The notes under the pieces were generated by a model. The model did not search any database and was not told where the DNA came from. It was given only the letters and a program-made list of their open reading frames with translations. From an uncultured bacterium (GTDB lineage: Bacteria; Patescibacteriota; Patescibacteriia; CAIQCM01), in contig OY970181.1 of the NCBI GenBank assembly GCA_963708045.1, positions 887,566-951,565 on the forward strand: DNA of 64,000 nt. Reading direction: 5' to 3'. Shown here piece after piece: positions 5,113 through 51,587 of the stretch. Both the position numbers and the translations under genes were made by a program. How positions within the stretch are numbered: the stretch's first letter is position 1; each line of letters begins with the position of its first letter.

Positions 5113-6333
5113 ATGAAAATCGTAATGCACGCCGATATGAATAGTTATTTTGCATCGGTGGAACAGCAGGCTAACCCGTTTCTTCGTGGCAAACCAGTGG
5201 CTATCTGTTCGCGTATTTCACGAAATGCCTGCATTATCGCTTGTTCTGTTGAAGCAAAAAAACTTGGCATTAAAACGGGTTTTAGTTTAAACGAAGCCAA
5301 AGTTATTGCGCCAAATATTATCGCTTTGGAAGTTGATCCGCCAAAAGTTCGCACGGTGACCAAAAAAATTTTCACGATTTTTGCCGACTTTACATCGGCA
5401 ATAGAACCTTATTCAATTGACGAAGCGTTTATGGATGTTACTGGTTATGTTAATAGTTTTGAAGCAGCGCACGAGATGGCTTTGGTCATAAAAAAACGAA
5501 TCAGGAACGAAGTAGGGGAATGGCTGGGTTGTTCCATTGGAATTTCCTATACGCGCTGGCTTGCTAAATTTGCTGGTGAATTGCAAAAACCCGACGGCCT
5601 TACGATCCTAAAAAAAGAAGACCTAGCGCGTATTTATAAAAACCGCCCCGTTGACGAAGCATGGGGGATTGCTAAAGGCTGGAAAACCAGATTAAATGCA
5701 CTCGGTATTAACACCCTTGGCGAACTTCTTGTCTATAACCCATTGGAACTTAAACGACGTTTTGGAATGCCCGGATATATTATTTGGGCAAATGTGAGCG
5801 GGTTGGATATTAAGGAGGTCAAAACTGCAACCAATGAACAACAAAAAAGCATTGGCCATTCTTATGTTTTTCACAAACGCACGGCCGACGAACAAATGAT
5901 CTCGGCGATTGCCATGAAACTTTGTGAGCGCGTTGGCTGCCGCCTGCGCAAGCTCGGTATGGAGACTAGGGGGATTAGAGTTGACTGGAGTTGCGGAGAA
6001 AACGGAGATAGTCGCCGAGTGCGCTGTTTTGACTCTGTTTTTGAGTCATACGACATTTATAATGCGGCTTTTAAGACCTTCCGCAACGCTTGGAATCGTT
6101 CCGTTGTTACTTTTATGGGTATAACCGCTTTTGACCTTGTACCGACAAACGGACAAATTTCAATTTTTAACAACAAACAAAAAAAGCGCGGACTTAGCAC
6201 CGCGCTTGATCTTGTAAATGATCGCTATGGAGCTTATACCGTCTTCCGCGGTCAAATGTGGGGGACAGAAGAAAGCGCACCCGACCGCGTCGGTTTTAGA
6301 CAAACCGTTCCTGTTCCCGCATTTATTAATTAG
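5113..6333 (+). CDS. dinB: Y-family DNA polymerase (DNA polymerase IV / DinB-like)
   Basis: HADMNSYFASVE (catalytic Asp motif), SIDEAFMDVTG, little-finger region. Directly downstream of lexA. Confidence 0.8.
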   Translation: MKIVMHADMNSYFASVEQQANPFLRGKPVAICSRISRNACIIACSVEAKKLGIKTGFSLNEAKVIAPNIIALEVDPPKVRTVTKKIFTIFADFTSAIEPYSIDEAFMDVTGYVNSFEAAHEMALVIKKRIRNEVGEWLGCSIGISYTRWLAKFAGELQKPDGLTILKKEDLARIYKNRPVDEAWGIAKGWKTRLNALGINTLGELLVYNPLELKRRFGMPGYIIWANVSGLDIKEVKTATNEQQKSIGHSYVFHKRTADEQMISAIAMKLCERVGCRLRKLGMETRGIRVDWSCGENGDSRRVRCFDSVFESYDIYNAAFKTFRNAWNRSVVTFMGITAFDLVPTNGQISIFNNKQKKRGLSTALDLVNDRYGAYTVFRGQMWGTEESAPDRVGFRQTVPVPAFIN

Positions 6334-8008
6334 CTATAGGCGAGGGAAGTGGCCGTAAATCAAGTTCGGTTAGAATTTTTTTATCAAGCGTAAAAACCAT
6401 TACTGTCTCCGGTTCAGTAAGATTCAGAAGGCGTACACCACTCCTTGCTCCATCGGTCCAGTTAAGTTCTCGAGCGGTATTTGCAGCGGAATTTGCGGTT
6501 TTATGCCAAAGAGCTTGTTCGTCGCCGGATGTGGTGTCCATACGAACCAAACTAACACTTGACCCGTTCACGTCCCAGACTGCAATTCCGGTGTCCGGAA
6601 GCGAGTTGTCGTAAAATCCTCGCTCGCGATTTTCAATAAGAAAATATTCTGTACCAGCGGCTGGACCATTTGGTTGGTCGCGATCAACACGAATCACGGT
6701 ATGGGAATCTTCAATTGAACCAAGTTTTAAATTTGTAACTTCTTGCGCTTTAGGAATTACGGTTGGTGTAAGCCAACCAAGCTGAATACGAGCATAAGGA
6801 TCTATTTGCAAGTCAGTATGCGGTGCGCTCATTAATGAAAATTTACCAAGCGACGAGTCGGGGATATTAAAAATTTGTTTAGCAAAACAGTGGGCAATTG
6901 CACCAAACTCTGTCGCCTCACCGAGCGGATTACCAATATAAAGCTCGCCAACCGTATTCAAAGTTACCCCATCAACAACCATAGGTTTTTGTTCTGGCGT
7001 TTCCGCCGAATAAACACTAGAAACAGCATCGGCAGGCTCGCCAGATTGCGGGATAACGATAAAAATTGCCAACTCGTCAAACGTTAATTTACCATCGCCA
7101 TTAGTATCGTATTTTTTAAAATCAAAATCAGCGTTAGCCTTTTTAATAGCTTCGGCGCGACGCTCGTTGGCGCCAGTGCTAAAACCATCTTTCCCGTGGA
7201 TAAGCGGATCGTCTGACCAATAATGCTCGGGTTGATATTCAGCTCCATACCAACCAAGCACTCCAGCATTAATAACAGAAACGTGATTATCAGATTCGGT
7301 TTTAAAGTAGTCAGCAACGCTTGGTGCTGTACCAAAAACAACCCGTTCAATGGAGGTTTTGTCAGGTGCAGCCGCATCGGGTCGCTTGGGATCCCATAAA
7401 ATTAACAGGACATTCTTTTTTGTCGGATTAACCACGGTTGGTGTGACCGTAACCGGCGTCGTTGCGGTTGGATTCGGTGCTTTCGTGGAATCGCGATCAG
7501 TAATTATCGTCGGTGACGCATCGCGTTCGTTTGTCCACCAGTATTCACCGGTAACGGAAATGTCAGTGCCGAATTTATAAGACGTAAAAAAAGCGTCTGG
7601 CACGGAAATAACTTTTTTTGACCAGTTATCGCCAAAAATAGTTTTGGCGATATTCGGAGTTGTGAGCCAACGCAAAACGCCACCGTGGGCAACGGCATAA
7701 ACCTTGGCGCTTGAAGCAATTTTTACAATATTGTCTCCGGGACGAATTGTCACTAGTCCCGATAAAGACAAGGCGGCTAATTCCGTATCAGTGATCGTTT
7801 TAACGGTTTTAAAATCGGCGTACCAAGTAAAATATGTCGCTTCGTTGGGAAAAGCCAAACGCTTGCCGCCTGCGAGAACAAGATAAACTGCCGATCTTGA
7901 ACCTTTAACCAAGTCGCCTTCGGCAGGGGAATAGGCGGCGCTTGCCGGCCTCGACAGTGCGCTAATTATAAATATTACGATTAGAATTTTTATTTTATTC
8001 ATATTCAA
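6326..8008 (-). CDS. secreted multidomain protein: paralogous N-terminal domain + Pro/Thr linker + M6-like metalloprotease domain with degenerate HExxH (HCFAK), predicted catalytically inactive
   Basis: Signal peptide. N-domain paralogous to that of 7995..10052. C-domain aligns with 10135..11394 (VVDGVT..., EF-hand-like DTNGDGKLTFDEL, FSLMSAPH), but HELSH is replaced by HCFAK. Confidence 0.5.
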   Translation of the reverse strand: MNMNKIKILIVIFIISALSRPASAAYSPAEGDLVKGSRSAVYLVLAGGKRLAFPNEATYFTWYADFKTVKTITDTELAALSLSGLVTIRPGDNIVKIASSAKVYAVAHGGVLRWLTTPNIAKTIFGDNWSKKVISVPDAFFTSYKFGTDISVTGEYWWTNERDASPTIITDRDSTKAPNPTATTPVTVTPTVVNPTKKNVLLILWDPKRPDAAAPDKTSIERVVFGTAPSVADYFKTESDNHVSVINAGVLGWYGAEYQPEHYWSDDPLIHGKDGFSTGANERRAEAIKKANADFDFKKYDTNGDGKLTFDELAIFIVIPQSGEPADAVSSVYSAETPEQKPMVVDGVTLNTVGELYIGNPLGEATEFGAIAHCFAKQIFNIPDSSLGKFSLMSAPHTDLQIDPYARIQLGWLTPTVIPKAQEVTNLKLGSIEDSHTVIRVDRDQPNGPAAGTEYFLIENRERGFYDNSLPDTGIAVWDVNGSSVSLVRMDTTSGDEQALWHKTANSAANTARELNWTDGARSGVRLLNLTEPETVMVFTLDKKILTELDLRPLPSPIAN

Positions 8009-10052
8009 ATGCTCCTAAATCCAAAGCACTTCCCGTCGCTGTACGGACTTTTCCGCGAGCTAAATCAACATATTCATATTGTACCTGATTTAAGACAGTA
8101 GCTAAAGGCAATGCTTCCGATTTATCAATTAACGGCGACCCATTGAGCGGCTTAAAATTTGTATCAAGCATTGGATTAGTTCCAGATATTATTTTATTAT
8201 CGTTCGTTACCGTGCCTGTAAAATCAGGACGAGCAATGTCATAACCGCTAGAAATCCAATTAGTTCCAAGATGAAGTTGTCCGTTTCTGCTAAGCATTAA
8301 AAGTTGGGTCGTGCCGGTGACTACATACGTATTGTTGCGCATATCAACATGTTCATCATTAGTGCTAGCGTCAACAATGATTGTGTACCAGAAGTCGCTG
8401 CTATTCGCGCTCATTATAACTGTGTTGTTATAAAAGTAGAGCGTGCCCTTACGAAAATCCTGTTCAAAACCTTCGGTATCGCCGCCGTAATGAACTAGCC
8501 GCTCGGCGTCATTTGGTCCAGAAATAAGAATATTGCCGTAAACAAAAGTTTCGCGATAACGAGGATCGGCGAGTGCGTGTATAACGTGTTCTTGAGCATC
8601 AACCAGATCAATCAAGCGCGACGTGCCTTCAATATAATTATAACGGACGACGGTTCCAGCGGAACGATCTTTAATGTTTGCGCCAAGCGAACCGGCCCGC
8701 AGTCGGCCAAAACGATTAAACTGGATCGTTACGCCCAGTGTTTGGGTATAAACGTTATGTTCTAACCAAGAATCAGCGTTGCCATTACCAAATATATTAT
8801 TTCCTTCCAAAAGCACATCACGCACCAGTGTTGCTTCTACTTCGTCTTTAGCAAGTGTAAAAAATCCAAATCCAGAATCCGAAAGCTCACAGCCACGTAC
8901 GGTAATATTATTTCCACCAACAACCGCGACTGATGACGATCCTTTTCCCCAAGATACGACCGAACCGTCGGTTCTTGTGTGTTTATTTGCTTGGTTAGCG
9001 CCTTTTATAATCAAACCCTCAATGGTTATATAACCGGGACGATAGTTATAAAGCTGCCCATCGCCGCGTTCTATTGCAATAAGCGCTTGCTCTTGGTTTG
9101 GCAAATAGGATGTAAAATGCAAATTCGGACCGGCAACCGCGTTTTCTCCGCTCAAAACCGGCCGTTCGCCGTTTGGCCCGACCACGCCACAAACACGAAT
9201 TGGCTGATCGGCGGTACCGGTTCCGGAAATTAAAATTTGCTCACGATATGGTTCCGCTTTCCAAAATATTCTTACTGTATCGCCGGCGCCAAGCGTATAC
9301 CAAGGCACTTCGCCGATAGTAGCATATTCCTTATTTGGTCCGACGTCATAAGTATGAGAAACACCAGGCAAGCAAGCTATTGATAATGGCGGCGCAGTTG
9401 GCGTTGGGTCAGAAACGGGCGTTGGATCGGGGACTGGCGTTGGACTTGGTGCAGGTGCCGGACTCGGTGCAGGCGTTCCACCACCACTCCCACCACCACC
9501 CGAAGAATTAGCCAATACAGGCACTGGTACTTTTTTGTCGTCATTAATGGTTAGCGCCGAGCTTGTTTCATTTTCTTTCCAATATTGTCCAAACGCAGTA
9601 ATTGGGCTGCCCTGTTTATATGAGGCATAAAAAGCGTCAGGTATCGTAATTATTTTTTTTGACCAGCCTTGTCCAAAAATTGACGTGGCAATTGTCTCGT
9701 TTTGCATCCAGCGCAAAGTTCCATTCTTTGCCACTGCAAAAATTTTGTTAGGATCAGAACTTATTCTTACCGGAGCTATGCCCGGTCGCAGAGTAACCAA
9801 CCCCGTAAGAGGTATCACAGCAAGTTCGTTGTCTGTAATAAATTTTACATTAGAAAAATTTGCATACCACGAAAAGTATGTAGGTTCATTTGGAAACGCC
9901 ATTCTTTTTCCATCAGTGGTAATATAATAAACTGCAGACAAAGAACCTTTAACAAGATCGCCAGGGGATAGCGTTTCCGCTTTACCAGAAAATGGACTTA
10001 GGATCAGAACCGAAACAAAAACTATGAGTATGAATTTAAATAATCTATTCAT
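7995..10052 (-). CDS. secreted protein: paralogous N-terminal domain + Gly/Ser/Pro/Thr linker + right-handed parallel beta-helix (pectate-lyase-like) domain
   Basis: Likely start at MNRLFKFILIVFVSVL signal peptide (internal Met of the 697-aa ORF). Repetitive NNITV/GNNIFGNGN beta-helix-like turns. Possible polysaccharide lyase or hydrolase. Confidence 0.5.
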   Translation of the reverse strand: MNRLFKFILIVFVSVLILSPFSGKAETLSPGDLVKGSLSAVYYITTDGKRMAFPNEPTYFSWYANFSNVKFITDNELAVIPLTGLVTLRPGIAPVRISSDPNKIFAVAKNGTLRWMQNETIATSIFGQGWSKKIITIPDAFYASYKQGSPITAFGQYWKENETSSALTINDDKKVPVPVLANSSGGGGSGGGTPAPSPAPAPSPTPVPDPTPVSDPTPTAPPLSIACLPGVSHTYDVGPNKEYATIGEVPWYTLGAGDTVRIFWKAEPYREQILISGTGTADQPIRVCGVVGPNGERPVLSGENAVAGPNLHFTSYLPNQEQALIAIERGDGQLYNYRPGYITIEGLIIKGANQANKHTRTDGSVVSWGKGSSSVAVVGGNNITVRGCELSDSGFGFFTLAKDEVEATLVRDVLLEGNNIFGNGNADSWLEHNVYTQTLGVTIQFNRFGRLRAGSLGANIKDRSAGTVVRYNYIEGTSRLIDLVDAQEHVIHALADPRYRETFVYGNILISGPNDAERLVHYGGDTEGFEQDFRKGTLYFYNNTVIMSANSSDFWYTIIVDASTNDEHVDMRNNTYVVTGTTQLLMLSRNGQLHLGTNWISSGYDIARPDFTGTVTNDNKIISGTNPMLDTNFKPLNGSPLIDKSEALPLATVLNQVQYEYVDLARGKVRTATGSALDLGAFEYE

Positions 10053-35573: not shown

Positions 35574-36137
35574 TTAAAAGTTAAAAGTTAAAAGCTCTTT
35601 CCTAAGTTTTTTATGCTCCGGAATCGTCTTCGCGACCAAATCCCAAAATCTTTTTGAGTGATTAAATTCTGCCAAATGACAAAGCTCGTGAACAATAATA
35701 TAATCGGCAAGGTGCGGCGCGAGAAGTGACAGCTTATAATTAAAATTTAGATTCCCCTTTTTTGAACAACTTCCCCAACGCGTTTTTTGATTTTTAATAT
35801 TCACCGCTTTAAAACGAAAACCATAAAATAAATTAAAATGCCTAATCCGATCATTAACAAGGGCGCGTGTGATTTCTTTATATTTTAAATATTCGCTCCG
35901 CGTTCCCTTTTTTACAATTTGTATTTTATGCTCTTTAAAAAAGGCAATTTTGCGGGTGAGCCATACAGCTTTTTCGCGGATAAATTTTTCGGCCAGTGTT
36001 TCATTAGCCCACCACGGCGTTGTCACAACAATTCTACCATCGCAATATACCGCAAGCCGCATCCGCTTGGCTCGTCGGCTTTTCTTTATGGTATAAGGAA
36101 GCGTCGTAGATTTATTTTTTAACGTAAAAAAATTAAT
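35574..36137 (-). CDS. YgjP/DUF45-family metal-dependent hydrolase (M48/WLM-like, HExxH)
   Basis: ...LPYTIKKSRRAKRMRLAVYCDGRIVVTTP...WGSCS...YIIVHELCHLAEFNHSKRFW. Start uncertain: the family-conserved N-terminus overlaps the atpC stop. The only in-frame candidate is ATT at 36135-36137. Confidence 0.55.
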   Translation of the reverse strand: MNFFTLKNKSTTLPYTIKKSRRAKRMRLAVYCDGRIVVTTPWWANETLAEKFIREKAVWLTRKIAFFKEHKIQIVKKGTRSEYLKYKEITRALVNDRIRHFNLFYGFRFKAVNIKNQKTRWGSCSKKGNLNFNYKLSLLAPHLADYIIVHELCHLAEFNHSKRFWDLVAKTIPEHKKLRKELLTFNF

Positions 36138-36576
36138 TTGATTCCGGCGTACCGCTACGCGCGCGATGATGACGATGAGCAACTTTAAGTCGCGCCATTT
36201 CCCGTTCCAAGGCGATAGCAGCATCGGCATAAGCAACAGCATCGTGATCTTTTGCCGCTTCGGCCGTGGCCTCGGCCCGCGCTTTGGCATTTTCAATTTC
36301 CGAAATAACTAAATCCTCGGCGCGGTCGGCCGAGTCGGCTAAAATAATCGCGCGGCTGCCTGGCAAAATTTGTACCGCGCCGCCGGAAACGGCAAAATAT
36401 TTTGTCGCGCCGTTTGCACGGACAACAAGCGCACCCGAAGATACTAAACCAACCAAACCAATATGGTTTGGTAAAACGGTTATTTCACCATCAAACGTCG
36501 GCACGGTTACGCTATCCACTTCTTCCTTAAGTACCGTCTTTTCAGGAGTTGTTATTTCTAAATTCAACTTTGCCAT
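36133..36576 (-). CDS. atpC: ATP synthase F1 epsilon subunit
   Basis: MAKLNLEITTPEKTV... beta-sandwich N-domain plus helical C-domain. Last gene of the atp operon. Confidence 0.8.
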   Translation of the reverse strand: MAKLNLEITTPEKTVLKEEVDSVTVPTFDGEITVLPNHIGLVGLVSSGALVVRANGATKYFAVSGGAVQILPGSRAIILADSADRAEDLVISEIENAKARAEATAEAAKDHDAVAYADAAIALEREMARLKVAHRHHRARSGTPESN

Positions 36577-46662: not shown

Positions 46663-49379
46663 CTACTTTCCGTGACATTTCTTATATTTTTTCCCTGATC
46701 CGCAAGGACACAAGTCGTTGCGGCCGATTTTTTCTTCGTTTTCAATTGAAGTCGCCGCTTCTTTAGCCACGCCACCCTCATTTGTTATTTGGTCAGAAGT
46801 TTTGGCCGGAGCGGTGACGGTGATTCCGCGCCGGTCAAAAAGCGATTGCTGGTTTTGCGAAGCGGCAAAGCCAACTTTAAAAACCGTACCGGCAACCTGT
46901 TTGTCTATCGCAAGCAAAAGTTCGCCAAACATTCTAAATGCTTCGCGCTTATATTCAACAAGCGGATCGCGCTGGCCATAACCACGCAGGCCAATTCCGG
47001 CGCGCAGGTGGTCAATGTTGTCCAAGTGCTCAATCCACATCTGGTCAATTGAGCGAAGCATTACCGCTTGTTCAACCTTGGCAAGCATTTCCTTGTCGGT
47101 AAATTGTTTTTTAAGCGTTTCACGAACCGCCGTGGCGATTTCAATTAAATATTTAATCATCGCGTCGCGCGCTTCAACGTCACCAAGTTTTCCGCCCGAA
47201 CCGGCGGCATCGGCAAATTCTTTAAGCTTAGCTTCGGCGTCCGATGGCAACGGAAAAATCGTGCGAATATCTTTGTCAATTTCGGTAAAATTCCACGCTT
47301 TACGGTCATCACCGGCAGTGTGAAATTGAATGATGCGTTTTATTTCCCGTTCTGCCGAAGCCATTACAAGCTCAGCCGTATCGCTCGCGTGCAAGATTTC
47401 CGCACGGCGGCGATAAACTGTTTCGCGGTGCTTGTTTAAAACATCATCGTAATCCAGTAAGTGTTTACGAATATCAAAGTTGTGTCCTTCAACTTTTCCT
47501 TGCGCGCTTTCAATCGCTTTTGACACCATTCCGTGCTCTATTGGCATATCGTCGGGAAGTCCCAAACGATTAAGCATTGCTTTCATTCTATCAGTCGCAA
47601 AAATACGCATTAGGTCGTCGTCAAGCGACACAAAAAATTGCGTGGATCCTGGATCGCCTTGACGACCGGCGCGACCGCGCAACTGATTGTCTATGCGCCG
47701 CGATTCATGGCGCTCGGTGCCGATGACATGAAGTCCGCCCGCCGCGCGAACTTTTTCCGCTTCTTCGGGCTTGGCGGATTACCACCAAGAATAATGTCCA
47801 CACCGCGGCCAGCCATATTGGTCGCGAGTGTTACCGCGCCGGCGCGACCAGCTTGGGCAACAAATTCTGCTTCGCGTTCGTGGTTTTTGGCGTTCAAAAT
47901 ATTGTGTTTAATTCCTTCGCGTTCAAGCAAGGCCGAAAGGGCTTCGTTTTTTTCAATGGAAATCGTACCCAAAAGAACCGGTTGGCCTTTGGCCACGCGT
48001 TCTTTTATGTCCGCGACCACGGCGTTAAATTTTGCCGCTTCATTTTTGTAGATCCGATCCTGAAGATCTTTTCTTACGATCGGCTTATTGGTCGGCACGG
48101 TGACGACTTCTAATTTATAAATTTTAAAGAATTCCTCAGCTTCGGTTGCCGCCGTTCCGGTCATTCCGGCGAGCTTAGGATACATTCGGAAAAGATTTTG
48201 AAAAGTAATCGTCGCAAGCGTTTGCGATTCGCGTTGAATTTTTACATTTTCTTTTGCTTCAATCGCTTGGTGCAAACCTTCAGAATAGCGGCGTCCGTGC
48301 ATCAGCCGGCCGGTAAATTCGTCAACGATAATTACTTCACCGTTCGTGACAACGTAATTCTTGTCCAACTTATAAAGCGTGTGCGCTTTAAGCGCGGAGT
48401 CCAAGTGAAAAATCGTTTTAGAATCGTTTTCCTTCCACGGATCGCGATTAAGTTCGGCGGCAAGGTGAACCGCGCCTTCGTCAGTAAAAGTTGCCGAATG
48501 CATTTTTTCGTCAACGACGTAATCTTTTTCCGGAATCAAACGGCGGATGGTTTTCGCGTATTCGTAATACATCTGCGTCGCCTCTTCGGCCGGCGCGGAA
48601 ATAATCAGCGGCGTGCGCGCTTCGTCAATCAAAATTGAGTCAACTTCGTCAATGACCGCAAAATTTGGCGGACGTTGAACCATTCGTTCCAGATCGGGCA
48701 CCATATTGTCGCGCAAATAATCAAAACCAAATTCATTATTCGTGCCATACGTTATGTCCGCGGCATACGCTTCGCGTCTGGAGCACGGTCGCAAAAAAGA
48801 ATATTCAATACGGAACGAACCAGTGAGGTCGCGCTTTGCATCTTCTTCGCCGCCTTCGGTATTCTTTTCGCTTGCCTTAAAATCAGGATCGTAAAGATAC
48901 GACGTTTCGTGGTTAACGATACCAACAGAAAGTCCAAGCGCGCGATATATTTGTCCCATCCACGTCGCATCGCGGCGCGCGAGATAATCATTGACCGTCA
49001 CCAAATGAACGCCTTTTCCCGAAAGTGCGTTTAGGTAAATCGGTGCCGTCGCGACCAAAGTTTTTCCTTCACCAGTTCGCATTTCCGCAACCGCGCCAGA
49101 GTGCAAAATCATTCCACCAATAAGCTGAACGTCATAGTGGCGCTGATGAAGCGTCCGCTTGCCAGCTTCGCGAACGCAAGCAAACGCTTCCGGCAATAAT
49201 ATATCAAGTGTTTCGCCGTTCTTAAGGCGTTCACGAAATTCAACGGTTTTTCCACTAAGTTCCTCGTCGGACAAAGCGCTAATTTTTTCTTCAAGCGCAT
49301 TAATCTTAACAATCTCAGGCTGGAATTTTTTTACCGCCCGCGCGTTAGTGTCGCCAAAAATTTTTGTAATTATGGACAT
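46663..49379 (-). CDS. secA: preprotein translocase SecA, interrupted by an apparent 1-nt frameshift (~47766)
   Basis: N-part 47691..49379 ends ...[13 protein letters not shown] then out-of-frame junk. C-part frame reads ...[43 protein letters not shown]... to C-terminal [15 protein letters not shown] zinc finger. Restoring one G in the GG run at 47766-47767 fuses them. Confidence 0.8.
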
Positions 49380-49576
49380 AATTTTAAGAAAAACGGGCGG
49401 TTAAAAATTAGAAACCCATTTTAAGACTTTATATGAAAAACCAATTTTTATCAAGATTAAACAAGTTCGGGTTCGCGAATCTCAACATCTCAAACAGGCT
49501 CCGAGATTTCTCACCCTGGACAAAACAACCAGACGGGCTCGGAATGACGCCGTGAGAATTAATTTTATAAATTAAG

Positions 49577-49605
49577 ATCGGGTCAGCCGTGTGGCCGACC
49601 CGATA
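49577..49605 (-). terminator. hairpin immediately after RT stop codon (possible terminator)
   Basis: Minus-sense ATCGGGTCGGCC-acac-GGCTGACCCGAT (12-bp stem incl. one G-U) followed by CTTAATTTATAAAATT. Confidence 0.35.
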
Positions 49606-49606
49606 A

Positions 49607-50410
49607 TTAAGAACTCTTCTGCGGAACTCGTCCCTCGGCAACAGCAAGCCGATACAAACGATAAGGTTCTACAAGCGACGGCGGTAGTCCCCCACGGTAC
49701 ACATTGCGCACCCATCCCAAATTTCCCTCCACTTCCGACTGGCTACGCTCCCCCTGACAAGCGCGGTTAAGCATAGCTCGATAACGACGAATCTTTTTCC
49801 GCGACAAGCGAACCCCATCGGTGCGATAGGCGCGACCTTTTCGTAAAGCAAAAAGGGGCGAACCAATAGAAAGACCAGTGACTTCAACCGAACCATTGTC
49901 AATTGATCGACGCTTGCATTTGTCCCAAGCAAGACGAAAACCGCATTCCTGGATAATCGTCCTGATTTTGGCGATTGACTCACCAATCTCGGAACTATCA
50001 TCTCCAGAAAAACAAAGATCATCTACGTAACGAGTAAACCTGATTCCAGAAGAAAGCTCGCGCTTTAGCCGCACATCCATTTCCCGACAAGCAAGATTAA
50101 AAAGAACCGGTGAAGTCAGCGCACCCTGCGGTATTGCCCCGCGATAACTAACGAGCTTCACCAGAATCTTAATCACCGACGGCGCAAAATTCATTTCGGA
50201 AAAAATTTTACGAAGCCGCCTTTCGGTCACTTGCCCAAACGCGTCGCGCAAGTCGCAAAAGTAAAAGTATCTTCCATTGCGATGCTTAAGCGCGTTTGAG
50301 AACGGCGAATGTCCGCGAACACAACCATGAACTATCCGAAGCAGACGATCGCGACCGCGCAAGTATCTGTAATGTTGATCAAGAAGGACGCGCAAACGAT
50401 TTTGAACCAA
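49607..50410 (-). CDS. reverse transcriptase, retron-type (NAxxH and VTG motifs); N-terminus interrupted by in-frame TAA
   Basis: HGCVRGHSPFSNALKH (motif 2 with NAxxH), YFYFCDLRDAFGQV (motif A), IPQGALTSPVLFNL (motif B), RYVDDLCFSG (YxDD), SVEVTGLSIG (VTG). In-frame upstream ...GRTPKKNGGYRKHFSPPPEIRLVQNRL is RT motif 1, but a TAA (50488-50490) separates it from a GGAGG-preceded ATG (50554-50556, MENGISLGVLCSVLGLSLEVIQ*). GC-rich. Confidence 0.7.
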   Translation of the reverse strand: MVQNRLRVLLDQHYRYLRGRDRLLRIVHGCVRGHSPFSNALKHRNGRYFYFCDLRDAFGQVTERRLRKIFSEMNFAPSVIKILVKLVSYRGAIPQGALTSPVLFNLACREMDVRLKRELSSGIRFTRYVDDLCFSGDDSSEIGESIAKIRTIIQECGFRLAWDKCKRRSIDNGSVEVTGLSIGSPLFALRKGRAYRTDGVRLSRKKIRRYRAMLNRACQGERSQSEVEGNLGWVRNVYRGGLPPSLVEPYRLYRLAVAEGRVPQKSS

Positions 50411-50993
50411 GCGAATTTCCGGCGGCGGCGAAAAGTGCTTTCTATACCCGCCGTTCTTTTTCGGCGTCCGACCAAGACGATATTTTTCGCTAACCGCAAG
50501 TGCTTACTGAATTACCTCCAATGAAAGCCCCAAAACGGAGCAGAGAACACCAAGGCTTATTCCGTTTTCCATTGCCCCTCCCGTGTACAATTGTAAAGAG
50601 CGTTGAAAAGAAACGAGGGAACGAACCCGACGGCTCGCTCCCCCTCATAACAGCGCGACATTGAAGCACGCGGCCTTAACTCGTGCCCAAGCAAAACCCC
50701 AAAGCGACACTATTGCCGTAAGCAGCTTGAAGGCTGCATACCAGTGGCCGCGGGGCGCGTGGCACACGCGACAAGGCTACCCGCCAGAATTGCAGCAAGA
50801 GCAAGAGTTTGTGTTCAGTTGAACGTCTCCGCCTTGATGCGTTTTGAGCACGGCGCAACACCGCACCCTTGGCTAATTCGCTTGGCGCCGCCAGGTGCGA
50901 ACAAAGCCAATCCGATTACCGGCCTTTTGCCGATTGACGGAATTTACCGCTGTATGATAGTCCCTGGTAACTAAACCAACGGGGCATACCAAA

Positions 50994-51022
50994 AAACTAT
51001 GTGCTTTTCGCATTTTTGTCAA
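50994..51022 (-). promoter_or_regulatory. putative promoter TTGACA-N17-TAGTTT driving the RT-associated non-coding region
   Basis: Located right after the terminator of the upstream gene, at the 5' edge of the GC-rich island. Confidence 0.3.
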
Positions 51023-51026
51023 GACT

Positions 51027-51056
51027 AAAACAAAACCTCCCGAAGGAGGTTTTGTT
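51027..51056 (-). terminator. intrinsic terminator of the 51087..51587 gene
   Basis: AACAAAACCTCC-cgaa-GGAGGTTTTGTT perfect 12-bp stem running into a U tract on the minus strand. Confidence 0.6.
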
Positions 51057-51086
51057 GATATGTTTTTAAATTATTGCTAAGAAATA

Positions 51087-51587
51087 TCAACTAAATTTTT
51101 TTTGCAAACTTCTCTCTTCTTCCTCAAACCTTTCTACTATGTCTTTATGCCCTCTTCTTTTTAGCTCGTTTTTTATTATTTCCGCAGATCTTTTTAACAT
51201 TAATAATTGATCGTAATGTTCATTGGCTTCGTTCCTGTAATCTTGAACCTCCCCGAATTTATTTCTTCCTGCTTGATCAATTTTGTCGCCACTTTCATCT
51301 AAATCAATCAGCATAGCATCAAATAATTTAGGTCTTAAGCGCGACCCACTAACAAATCCATGGTAACCGTCTACCAAATCTTTTAGAGGCAATGTCTTGA
51401 GATATTCAATCTTATCTTTCCAAATTTTAAGTTTTTCCCACTGCCGATCCGTTTCTTTTTCATTTCCTTCGTAGAAGAAGAATTTTTGAGATACAGACTC
51501 AACTAGATCTTGTTCCTCTTTCTCCTGAACATGCTCCACGTTAGCTTCGGAAGGTACAAATTTTTCATTTTCTGACATAAAAACCAT
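51087..51587 (-). CDS. hypothetical acidic protein
   Basis: 166 aa, AT-rich like host. Separated from the RT island by its own terminator. Confidence 0.3.
   Translation of the reverse strand: MVFMSENEKFVPSEANVEHVQEKEEQDLVESVSQKFFFYEGNEKETDRQWEKLKIWKDKIEYLKTLPLKDLVDGYHGFVSGSRLRPKLFDAMLIDLDESGDKIDQAGRNKFGEVQDYRNEANEHYDQLLMLKRSAEIIKNELKRRGHKDIVERFEEEERSLQKKFS

Follow-up and report, generated by a model that had tools for sequence, protein, structure and literature searches.

In a 64-kb window from the genome of an uncultured bacterium of the Patescibacteria (contig OY970181.1 of assembly GCA_963708045.1; the window is the whole stretch of 64,000 nt that was analysed, and positions refer to it unless stated otherwise), we identified a small element that consists of a retron-family reverse transcriptase (RT) gene and its own structured RNA of ~385 nt, which together occupy ~1.45–1.5 kb at the intergenic site between hpf and secA. 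The element is an accessory cassette, being present, absent or replaced by a divergent allele in nearly identical genomic backgrounds. It is best read as a new effector-less variant of the retrons, probably inactive in this genome. On the basis of anatomy and classification, we consider it likely that a retron-family RT and its cognate RNA form an accessory cassette without an effector; the synthesis of msDNA (multicopy single-stranded DNA) and the steps leading to defence are proposed by analogy, and tentatively. It is possible, if rather doubtful, that the RT family represents a whole retron lineage without protein effector, in which an exchangeable immunity cassette would need nothing beyond the RT and an RNA of ~330–385 nt. 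Retrons are seen as defence systems of three parts that resemble toxin/antitoxin systems. Mestre and colleagues are said to describe them as tripartite systems with an effector gene or a fused effector domain and, to our knowledge, all 13 described retron types carry an effector.

The RT belongs with the retron RTs, and not with those of group II introns, diversity-generating retroelements (DGRs) or defence-associated RTs (DRTs), as supported by matches of hidden Markov models (HMMs), PDB sequences and folds. When the PADLOC HMMs were compared with the window RT, the top 25 matches were all retron RTs, among them RT_VI (1.7e-41) and RT_II-A (4.6e-41). Among the NCBIfam models, retron_St85 reached 3e-35, and the retron St85, Ec67 and TIR-RT models gave 1e-33 to 1e-35, all under their curated cut-offs; the group II model TIGR04416 gave 2.5e-11 (43 bits versus a cut-off of 300), Drt2 1.1e-05 (24.8 bits versus a cut-off of 390) and Drt3a 2.5e-06. 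A search of the PDB with the family profile returned retron RTs as its first matches (Ec67, Ec86, Kva2, Ec83 and Ec78), and Foldseek matches of an AlphaFold model (predicted local distance difference test, pLDDT, 73) were topped by retron RTs, including Ec67, Ec86, Eco7, Ec83 and Ec78. NAxxH and VTG are motifs specific to retron RTs, and both were invariant across the RT family. The original prediction, made from the letters of the window, had proposed a retron-type RT; this was supported by all three kinds of comparison, with retron models ahead of group II and DRT/UG models by more than 20 orders of magnitude.

Within the retrons, the RT could not be assigned to any described type. Core members of the family scored 114–140 bits against every typed retron model, and such values against all typed models place the RT outside the 13 described retron types; the nearest outgroup RTs scored 250–275 bits against typed models, and two type XIII RTs 258–394 bits. 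RT_VI was the best model for four of the five core members, with a margin of less than 2 bits for the window RT and P0004 and no more than 13 bits for P0030. Among the RTs of the wider clade, the best-scoring typed model varied and RT_VI was not at the top. The RT has ~320 aa and no extra domain, as judged by HMM scans and the AlphaFold model. A word-indexed search among 5.8 billion proteins recovered six family members, separated from other sequences by a score gap (from at least 290 to at most 130 bits). An exhaustive profile search gave about eight clusters (50% identity) above 195 bits, some of which fall in Patescibacteria, followed by a graded tail of RTs of ~290–350 aa. Identity to the window RT was 74% for locus L001, 75% for L004 and 47% for L002, and the RT of L124 was ~39% identical to that of L001. 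Scanning genome contigs with peptide patterns from the RT alignment identified no relative, nor did a scan of viral contigs, and the scan of metagenome contigs yielded only one RT, which was 28% identical (L003).

The RT gene is located on the minus strand at 49607..50572 (321 codons; start ATG at 50572-50570, stop TAA at 49609-49607), with a Shine-Dalgarno (SD) sequence GGGAGGGG at 50582-50575, just 5' of the start. Its frame reads MENGISLGVLCSVLGLSLEVIQ-stop-ALAVSEKYRLGRTPKKNGGYRKHF...SNALKH...RYVDDL...VEVTGLS, and the motif 1 region is TPKKNGGYRKHF. The RT motifs named in the original prediction were all present in this minus-strand frame; in translation, NAxxH lies at 50296-50282, YVDD at 50029-50018 and VTG at 49882-49874. 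An in-frame TAA at codon 23 (50506-50504, minus strand) precedes motif 1, and the longest uninterrupted open reading frame (ORF) begins at TTG 50410, after motif 1. Thus, the gene as written is unable to give a complete RT and is a pseudogene in the record. Both this TAA and the opening ATG with its ribosome-binding site had been noticed before, although at coordinates (50488-50490 and 50554-50556, respectively) that proved to be 16 nt too low.

Comparison with relatives suggested that the lesion is recent. Intact homologues have 319–328 aa and carry Arg, Asp or Gln (the nearest with CAA) where the window has the TAA, and a C-to-T change (CAA to TAA) separates codon 23 of the window from that of the closest homologue. 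Since family homology begins at RT residue 7–10, the TAA falls inside a conserved N-terminal element. The ratio of nonsynonymous to synonymous substitution rates (dN/dS) was 0.12 for the window RT versus L001 and 0.11 versus L004, similar to that between the intact genes of L001 and L004 (0.13), which implies that the TAA is either very recent or not real. The same truncated 267-aa product was called in the Logan assemblies of two separate runs (ERR12035931 and ERR15459707), which favours a real mutation; the frame is broken, as originally claimed, in the deposited record and apparently also in both run assemblies. Most likely, the window copy represents an allele that was inactivated very recently, or a variant within the population; for this genome, the RT copy is probably dead, or else the record is in error. 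The latter idea, in which the organism has an intact RT and the TAA arose as a sequencing or consensus error or represents a minor variant in the deposited genome, has perhaps the best standing of the alternatives but is still rather unlikely. It gains from the lack of any further lesion in the RT, whose dN/dS resembles that of intact genes, from the single base that separates the TAA from the CAA of the closest homologue, and from a 1-nt frameshift in the essential secA gene, 2.7 kb away in the same record. However, an intact 321-codon ORF led by an ATG and an SD sequence would have been called in place of the truncated product in the two run assemblies, and errors appear to be infrequent because only secA besides the RT was broken among ~16 syntenic genes compared.

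Upstream of the RT gene lies a conserved structured RNA, and the evidence supports that it always accompanies this RT family. In the window, this retron-like non-coding RNA (ncRNA) extends over ~385 nt (50606..50990, minus strand), with ends predicted from the promoter and a T-run. Its fold has a minimum free energy (MFE) of -167 kcal/mol (z = -3.4), better than all of 100 shuffles. The region had been described as ~480–500 nt of structured non-coding DNA; it is indeed structured and non-coding, but the gene-free stretch measures ~420 nt from the -10 hexamer to the RT ATG, and the RNA is shorter still. By alignment, homologous RNAs were found upstream of the RT in five lineages (window, L001, L004, L002 and L124), and the signature hairpin P4 also occurs upstream of more distant RTs in L135 and L133. 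Four independent MFE folds (window, L001, L002 and L124) gave the same architecture, comprising from 5' to 3' the P0 hairpin, the long-range helix P1, arms P2–P5, a long P6 arm and a 3' hairpin. The presence of G-U pairs in the helices places the RNA on the RT strand.

Individual helices of the RNA were maintained by compensatory changes. The 5' hairpin P0 (50962..50983, minus strand) is located directly upstream of P1 in the window, L001, L002 and L124, and shows such changes in its outer stem. The 10-bp helix P1 is formed by an a1-like 5' strand UCAUACAGCG (50948..50957, minus strand) and an a2-like 3' strand CGCUGUUAUGA with one bulged U (50645..50655, minus strand), which pair in each of the four MFE folds and are backed by the inverted repeat and by covariation: in seven of ten pairs, both bases differ between the window and L124, and all ten positions pair in L002. 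The original prediction had suggested looking for a1/a2 repeats, which this covarying long-range helix resembles. A conserved GGU(U)AAA motif (50948-50943, minus strand) includes the final base of the P1 5' strand and extends from there in the 3' direction, and G50947 beside P1 may be the priming G. P4, the signature of the RNA family, is a hairpin of 10 bp (50846..50868, minus strand) whose loop is UUG and which contains an invariant GUUGCG. All 60 cells were paired in six lineages and four of the ten pairs were changed on both sides; its covariation score was reached by none of 500 shuffles, and slid controls paired at 23–62%. P4 is a likely RT-recognition site. P6 (50665..50785, minus strand) is a long irregular hairpin adjoining the P1 3' strand, with a window-specific insertion of 19 nt at its apex. 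A long arm with a variable apex occupies the P6 position in every homologue, comparable to the variable SL3 apex of type VI retron ncRNAs, and P6 is a candidate template (msd-like) arm. It should be noted that the helix counts were taken from folds of the single sequences and from helices registered by hand; in P3 and P6, L002 and L124 are misaligned by the MAFFT segment alignments, and their alifold counts in these arms are not meaningful.

No Rfam family, msr models included, matched the RNA, either at the gathering threshold in the window or at E values up to 10 in 49300-51200, and the RNA represents a new structured RNA family not in Rfam. The expectation that msr/msd would lie upstream of the RT was correct in that a conserved structured RNA was found there on the RT strand, and the msr/msd identity itself is an architectural resemblance. 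Searching genome contigs for the DNA pattern CCTGG-N18-40-GGTGYGGYGTTGCGCC was uninformative, as the matches listed included only chance ones in GC-rich genomes. Open frames exist in the RNA because the sequence is GC-rich, but no conserved ORF could be identified on either strand, the frame register differing among lineages and indels being non-triplet; a hidden ORF, sense or antisense, was rejected since there was no conserved peptide, start or SD sequence. A divergent case was seen in L133 (GCA_027425155.1, DAIBWE010000001.1, 3109-5000), where the RNA is compact (~205 nt) and ends in a long hairpin (18 bp) without T-run. In this GC-rich genome, the RT (P0264) follows seven same-strand ORFs (46–131 aa) without family matches, and its surroundings may be a mobile-element context.

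The RNA has a promoter and a terminator-like hairpin of its own. The promoter (50994..51022, minus strand), already pointed out in the original prediction, consists of TTGACA (51022-51017), a 17-nt spacer and TAGTTT (50999-50994). The -35 hexamer was invariant in L001 and L002, and its counterpart in L124 and L135 is TTGACT; the -10 hexamer is a weak one, and a consensus promoter scanner did not list the site. At the other end, a terminator scan detected the 13-bp 3' hairpin GGGGGAGCGAGCC-GUCG-GGUUCGUUCCCUC with a T-run (50605..50644, minus strand), which directly abuts P1. This is the stem-loop that had been quoted as an example of local structure; located at 50644-50615 and followed by GTTTCTTTTC, it is terminator-like, and it is retained with compensatory changes in L001, L002 and L124. 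Only ~35 nt separate the 3' hairpin from the RT start. In L124, the RNA is bounded by a promoter and a terminator of its own, and a second promoter serves the RT. The RT of the window, L001 and L002 is presumably expressed by read-through of the terminator.

The occurrence of the element in related genomes indicated that it is exchanged. In the window, the cassette is flanked by secA on one side and by hpf, then murB and mraY, on the other, and L001 and L002 carry the element at the same site in the order murB-hpf-[RNA-RT]-secA. Empty sites were found in L126 (hpf-secA gap of 69 nt; SecA 88% identical to that of L001) and L129 (58 nt; 76%), and L127 has no RT (76%) and a gap of 253 nt that holds a small inverted-repeat element. 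L001 and L002, which come from one sample, share 95.4% identity in SecA and 98.4% in Hpf, compared with 47% in the RT, and their RNAs have strongly diverged. At the DNA level, their identity was 86–97% within hpf, 40–60% across the cassette (L001 ~5347-6824) and 89–94% beyond; the divergent zone starts at the hpf stop and reaches the hairpin that follows the RT gene, and from this hairpin onward identity is again ~94%. Cassette borders were sharp and identical in three genomes. Such near-identical flanks, together with very different RTs and sharp borders, indicate an exchangeable accessory cassette of ~1.45 kb at a hotspot. Exchange of cassettes at hotspots is typical of defence loci. Both edges are marked by hairpins detected in the terminator scan. 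At the left edge, hairpin AACAAAACCTCCTTCGGGAGGTTTTGTT (51029..51056, minus strand) is the terminator of the transcript of hpf and a 166-aa gene; it directly follows the hpf stop in L001 and is missing from the empty sites of L126 and L129. At the right edge, hairpin ATCGGGTCGGCC-ACAC-GGCTGACCCGAT (49577..49604, minus strand) follows the RT stop, is common to the cassettes of the window, L001 and L002, and is likewise missing from empty sites. In addition, the same insertion with the same flanks was found in independent metagenomes. More distant family members occur in unrelated contexts, each with a gene-free stretch of 320–700 nt upstream of the RT.

Thus, the proposed island between secA and hpf-murB is indeed an insertion into a housekeeping locus, and a chimeric or contaminant join, which the original prediction had named as a possible refutation, is excluded because empty sites in close relatives define the junctions. 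Its description as GC-rich was right for the RNA (G+C 0.564 versus 0.440 for the window) but not clearly so for the RT (0.493), given values of 0.479 for secA and 0.349 for the 166-aa gene.

Neither an effector gene nor a fused effector domain was found in the cassettes, the non-syntenic loci and the RT domains examined, in agreement with the earlier view that no effector is evident on the island. Beyond the RNA and the RT, the three syntenic cassettes contain no gene; no ORF of at least 40 aa within 3.5 kb was common to the non-syntenic loci; and RT neighbours had no PADLOC or PHROGs matches. The 166-aa gene next to the cassette, which had been put forward as a possible effector, encodes an acidic protein (51087-51587, minus strand) that forms a singleton cluster in the protein collection. 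Contrary to the host-like composition and own terminator attributed to it, the gene is AT-richer than the host and uses the terminator of hpf, having been inserted downstream of the hpf stop and ahead of the hairpin that comes straight after hpf in relatives. It was not found in L001, L002, L126, L127 or L129, and its product had no Pfam, NCBIfam, PADLOC or PHROGs match. Being missing from all relatives, it is not a conserved partner; with no family matches and with the hpf terminator separating it from the RNA promoter, it was rejected as an effector.

On these observations, a mechanism can be outlined. The RT would be translated from transcripts reading through the RNA terminator and could bind the RNA via P4, P0 and P1. 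As in retrons, it might then use the 2'-OH of the conserved G beside the closing helix (~G50947) as primer and copy the adjacent long arm P6 into single-stranded msDNA. The resulting RT-RNA-DNA complex may serve anti-phage defence, with the toxic or sensing activity coming from the cDNA or RNA itself or from a host factor. If a retron without effector is confirmed, the reverse-transcribed DNA or the ribonucleoprotein (RNP) must both sense and act, or recruit a core host factor, a mechanism that would be new for the retron clade and would operate in minimal-genome bacteria; if the lack of a partner gene holds, the cDNA or RNP either acts as the effector or connects to a host pathway. The element is among very few retron-like elements from Patescibacteria, and the intact cassettes of L001 and L002, located at about 5375-6825 and 7576-9010 of these loci and representing two alleles in the same genomic background, offer a compact test object.

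Several points weigh against this interpretation. Only ~7 loci with DNA, three of them close relatives, were available, so that few contexts underlie the lack of an effector, and one that acts in trans is conceivable. RT scores against retron HMMs are about half of those of typed retron RTs, and the retron placement is based on HMM, sequence and fold similarity rather than on a tree. The priming G and the template arm were assigned by analogy, and the RNA ends, msDNA and defence role were deduced from sequence. The homology of P1 was not established for L135, in which a P1-like helix could not be confidently assigned, and L132 showed no RNA motif in the 249 nt available upstream of its RT. A terminator between ncRNA and RT is atypical for retrons. 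Finally, the frameshifted secA shows that the record contains at least one probable error, and the TAA could be another.

Other explanations of the cassette were also considered. In a two-part RT-ncRNA defence system like DRT2 or DRT9, the cDNA itself (repetitive or homopolymeric, or encoding a gene) would be the effector, instead of a branched msDNA guarding a toxin. The architecture of one small RT, an upstream structured ncRNA and no other gene is the same, and RT-ncRNA structures of DRT2 and DRT9 were among the fold matches. Nevertheless, we regard this possibility as unlikely: the Drt2 and Drt3a models matched only marginally (1e-5) next to those of retrons (1e-35 to 1e-41), the retron hallmarks NAxxH and VTG are present, and the RNA has no conserved stop-free frame on either strand, which speaks against a Neo-like product. 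Considerably less probable is a type VI-like retron with an unannotated effector, whose RNA would be a hybrid RNA (hyRNA) hiding a small toxin ORF, as in Retron-Vpa2 and Retron-Sen3. Although RT_VI is the best PADLOC model for most core members, the size and layout of the RNA resemble those of type VI ncRNA/hyRNA and one type VI retron entry is from a bacterium of the candidate phyla radiation (CPR), typed members score about twice as high with RT_VI, which is not the top model in the wider clade. Moreover, the RNA frames of L001, L002 and L124 differ in register, with non-triplet indels and no conserved start or SD sequence, are not consistently open on either strand, and the ~35 nt between terminator and RT start leave no room for a helix-turn-helix (HTH) gene, none of which was found.

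Slightly weaker still is the view that the whole family is a non-functional, decaying remnant of a three-part retron that has lost its effector. The nonsense codon of the window copy and the failure to find an effector in any locus fit such decay, but they have to be set against full-length RTs under purifying selection in relatives (dN/dS 0.13, L001-L004), RNA helices kept by compensatory changes, sharp borders that are identical in three genomes, and a two-part layout that recurs in unrelated genomic contexts; an effector-less retron variant is preferred. An origin outside the retrons, with the RT coming from a DGR or a group II intron or the region being a contaminant or a chimeric join, is already refuted despite the prevalence of DGRs, which are reported to account for ~80% of RTs in CPR/Patescibacteria genomes (PMC8632793), and the weak group II HMM match (2.5e-11), since retron HMMs and structures lead by over 20 orders of magnitude, the Rfam scans of the window and of 49300-51200 gave no intron or other relevant family, the window contains no template/variable repeat (blastn of the cassette against all 64 kb returned chance-level matches only), and the same insertion recurs in independent metagenomes with junctions defined by empty sites.

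Some features of the host and the surrounding region should also be mentioned. The host genome is represented by a contig of 1.19 Mb. The closest named relative of the host SecA was Candidatus Uhrbacteria (~60% identity), which places the host in Patescibacteria. In the record, secA (49379..46663, minus strand) is split into ORFs of 562 and 339 aa by a 1-nt frameshift at 47751-47769 near ...GGTAATCCGCCAAGCCCGAAGAAGCGG..., and SecA of the relatives is a single 905-aa protein. As secA is essential, the frameshift is probably a record error or a minor variant, and the secA record of this genome needs checking. The Logan contigs of ERR12035931 and ERR15459707 both end 660 nt into secA (~window 48720); the shared break point suggests that strains differ or that a repeat occurs at this position. 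In the stretch from the RT hairpin to the secA promoter, the window contains at 49470-49560 a truncated copy of the small inverted-repeat element, which is complete in L127 (3748-3870; GTCATTCCGAG...CTCGGAATGAC) and ~77% identical to the window copy. Its complete form at a hpf-secA site without RT indicates that this intergenic site gathers several kinds of insertions. Elsewhere, two same-strand ORFs of 240 and 147 aa that overlap by ~160 nt (35574-36576, minus strand) could be a frameshifted gene. No tRNA gene and, at the gathering threshold, no Rfam family could be identified anywhere in the 64-kb window.

Comparison with known systems helps to position the element. Group II intron RTs share the palm and fingers fold and the weak HMM match, whereas the element, with an RT of ~320 aa, is without intron RNA domains, maturase X or En domain. 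DRT2 (UG2) and DRT9 (UG28) likewise combine a small RT with an upstream structured ncRNA and have no separate protein effector, but they belong to another RT clade, with HMM matches of ~1e-5 and lower-ranking fold matches, and the window RNA has no conserved stop-free frame for a Neo-like product. Canonical retrons such as Ec86 (type II-A) and Ec67 (type I-C), whose RTs were the top PDB matches, have the same RT fold, N-terminal helix pair, NAxxH, YxDD and VTG, and an ncRNA that is located 5' of the RT, is bordered by inverted repeats and has a G beside the 5' repeat. They differ in that the window element has no effector protein or fused domain, that its RNA is about twice as long with five or six arms, and that its msDNA is so far a deduction. 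On the other hand, type VI retrons (Retron-Vpa2 and Retron-Sen3; RT clade 3, Mestre et al. 2020) possess a Cro/C1-type HTH gene, which lies upstream of the RT or overlaps it, and a small-protein toxin ORF inside the RNA, for which the window element has neither room (~35 nt) nor a conserved ORF; the window RT family scores 114–140 bits versus 250–390 bits for typed RTs on their own models, and the window RNA ends in a terminator-like hairpin before the RT. Nevertheless, RT_VI is, by a margin of at most 13 bits, the best PADLOC model for the window RT and three of the four other core members, and in both systems an RNA of a few hundred nt (within ~280 nt for the Sen3 ncRNA element and ~470 nt for the Vpa2 hyRNA) lies upstream of the RT on the same strand, with a conserved stem-loop that immediately precedes the 5' inverted repeat, a multi-arm structure closed by a long-range repeat and one long arm with a variable centre. 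Thus, the parallel in layout is closest for the type VI ncRNA/hyRNA of the 2025–2026 preprints.

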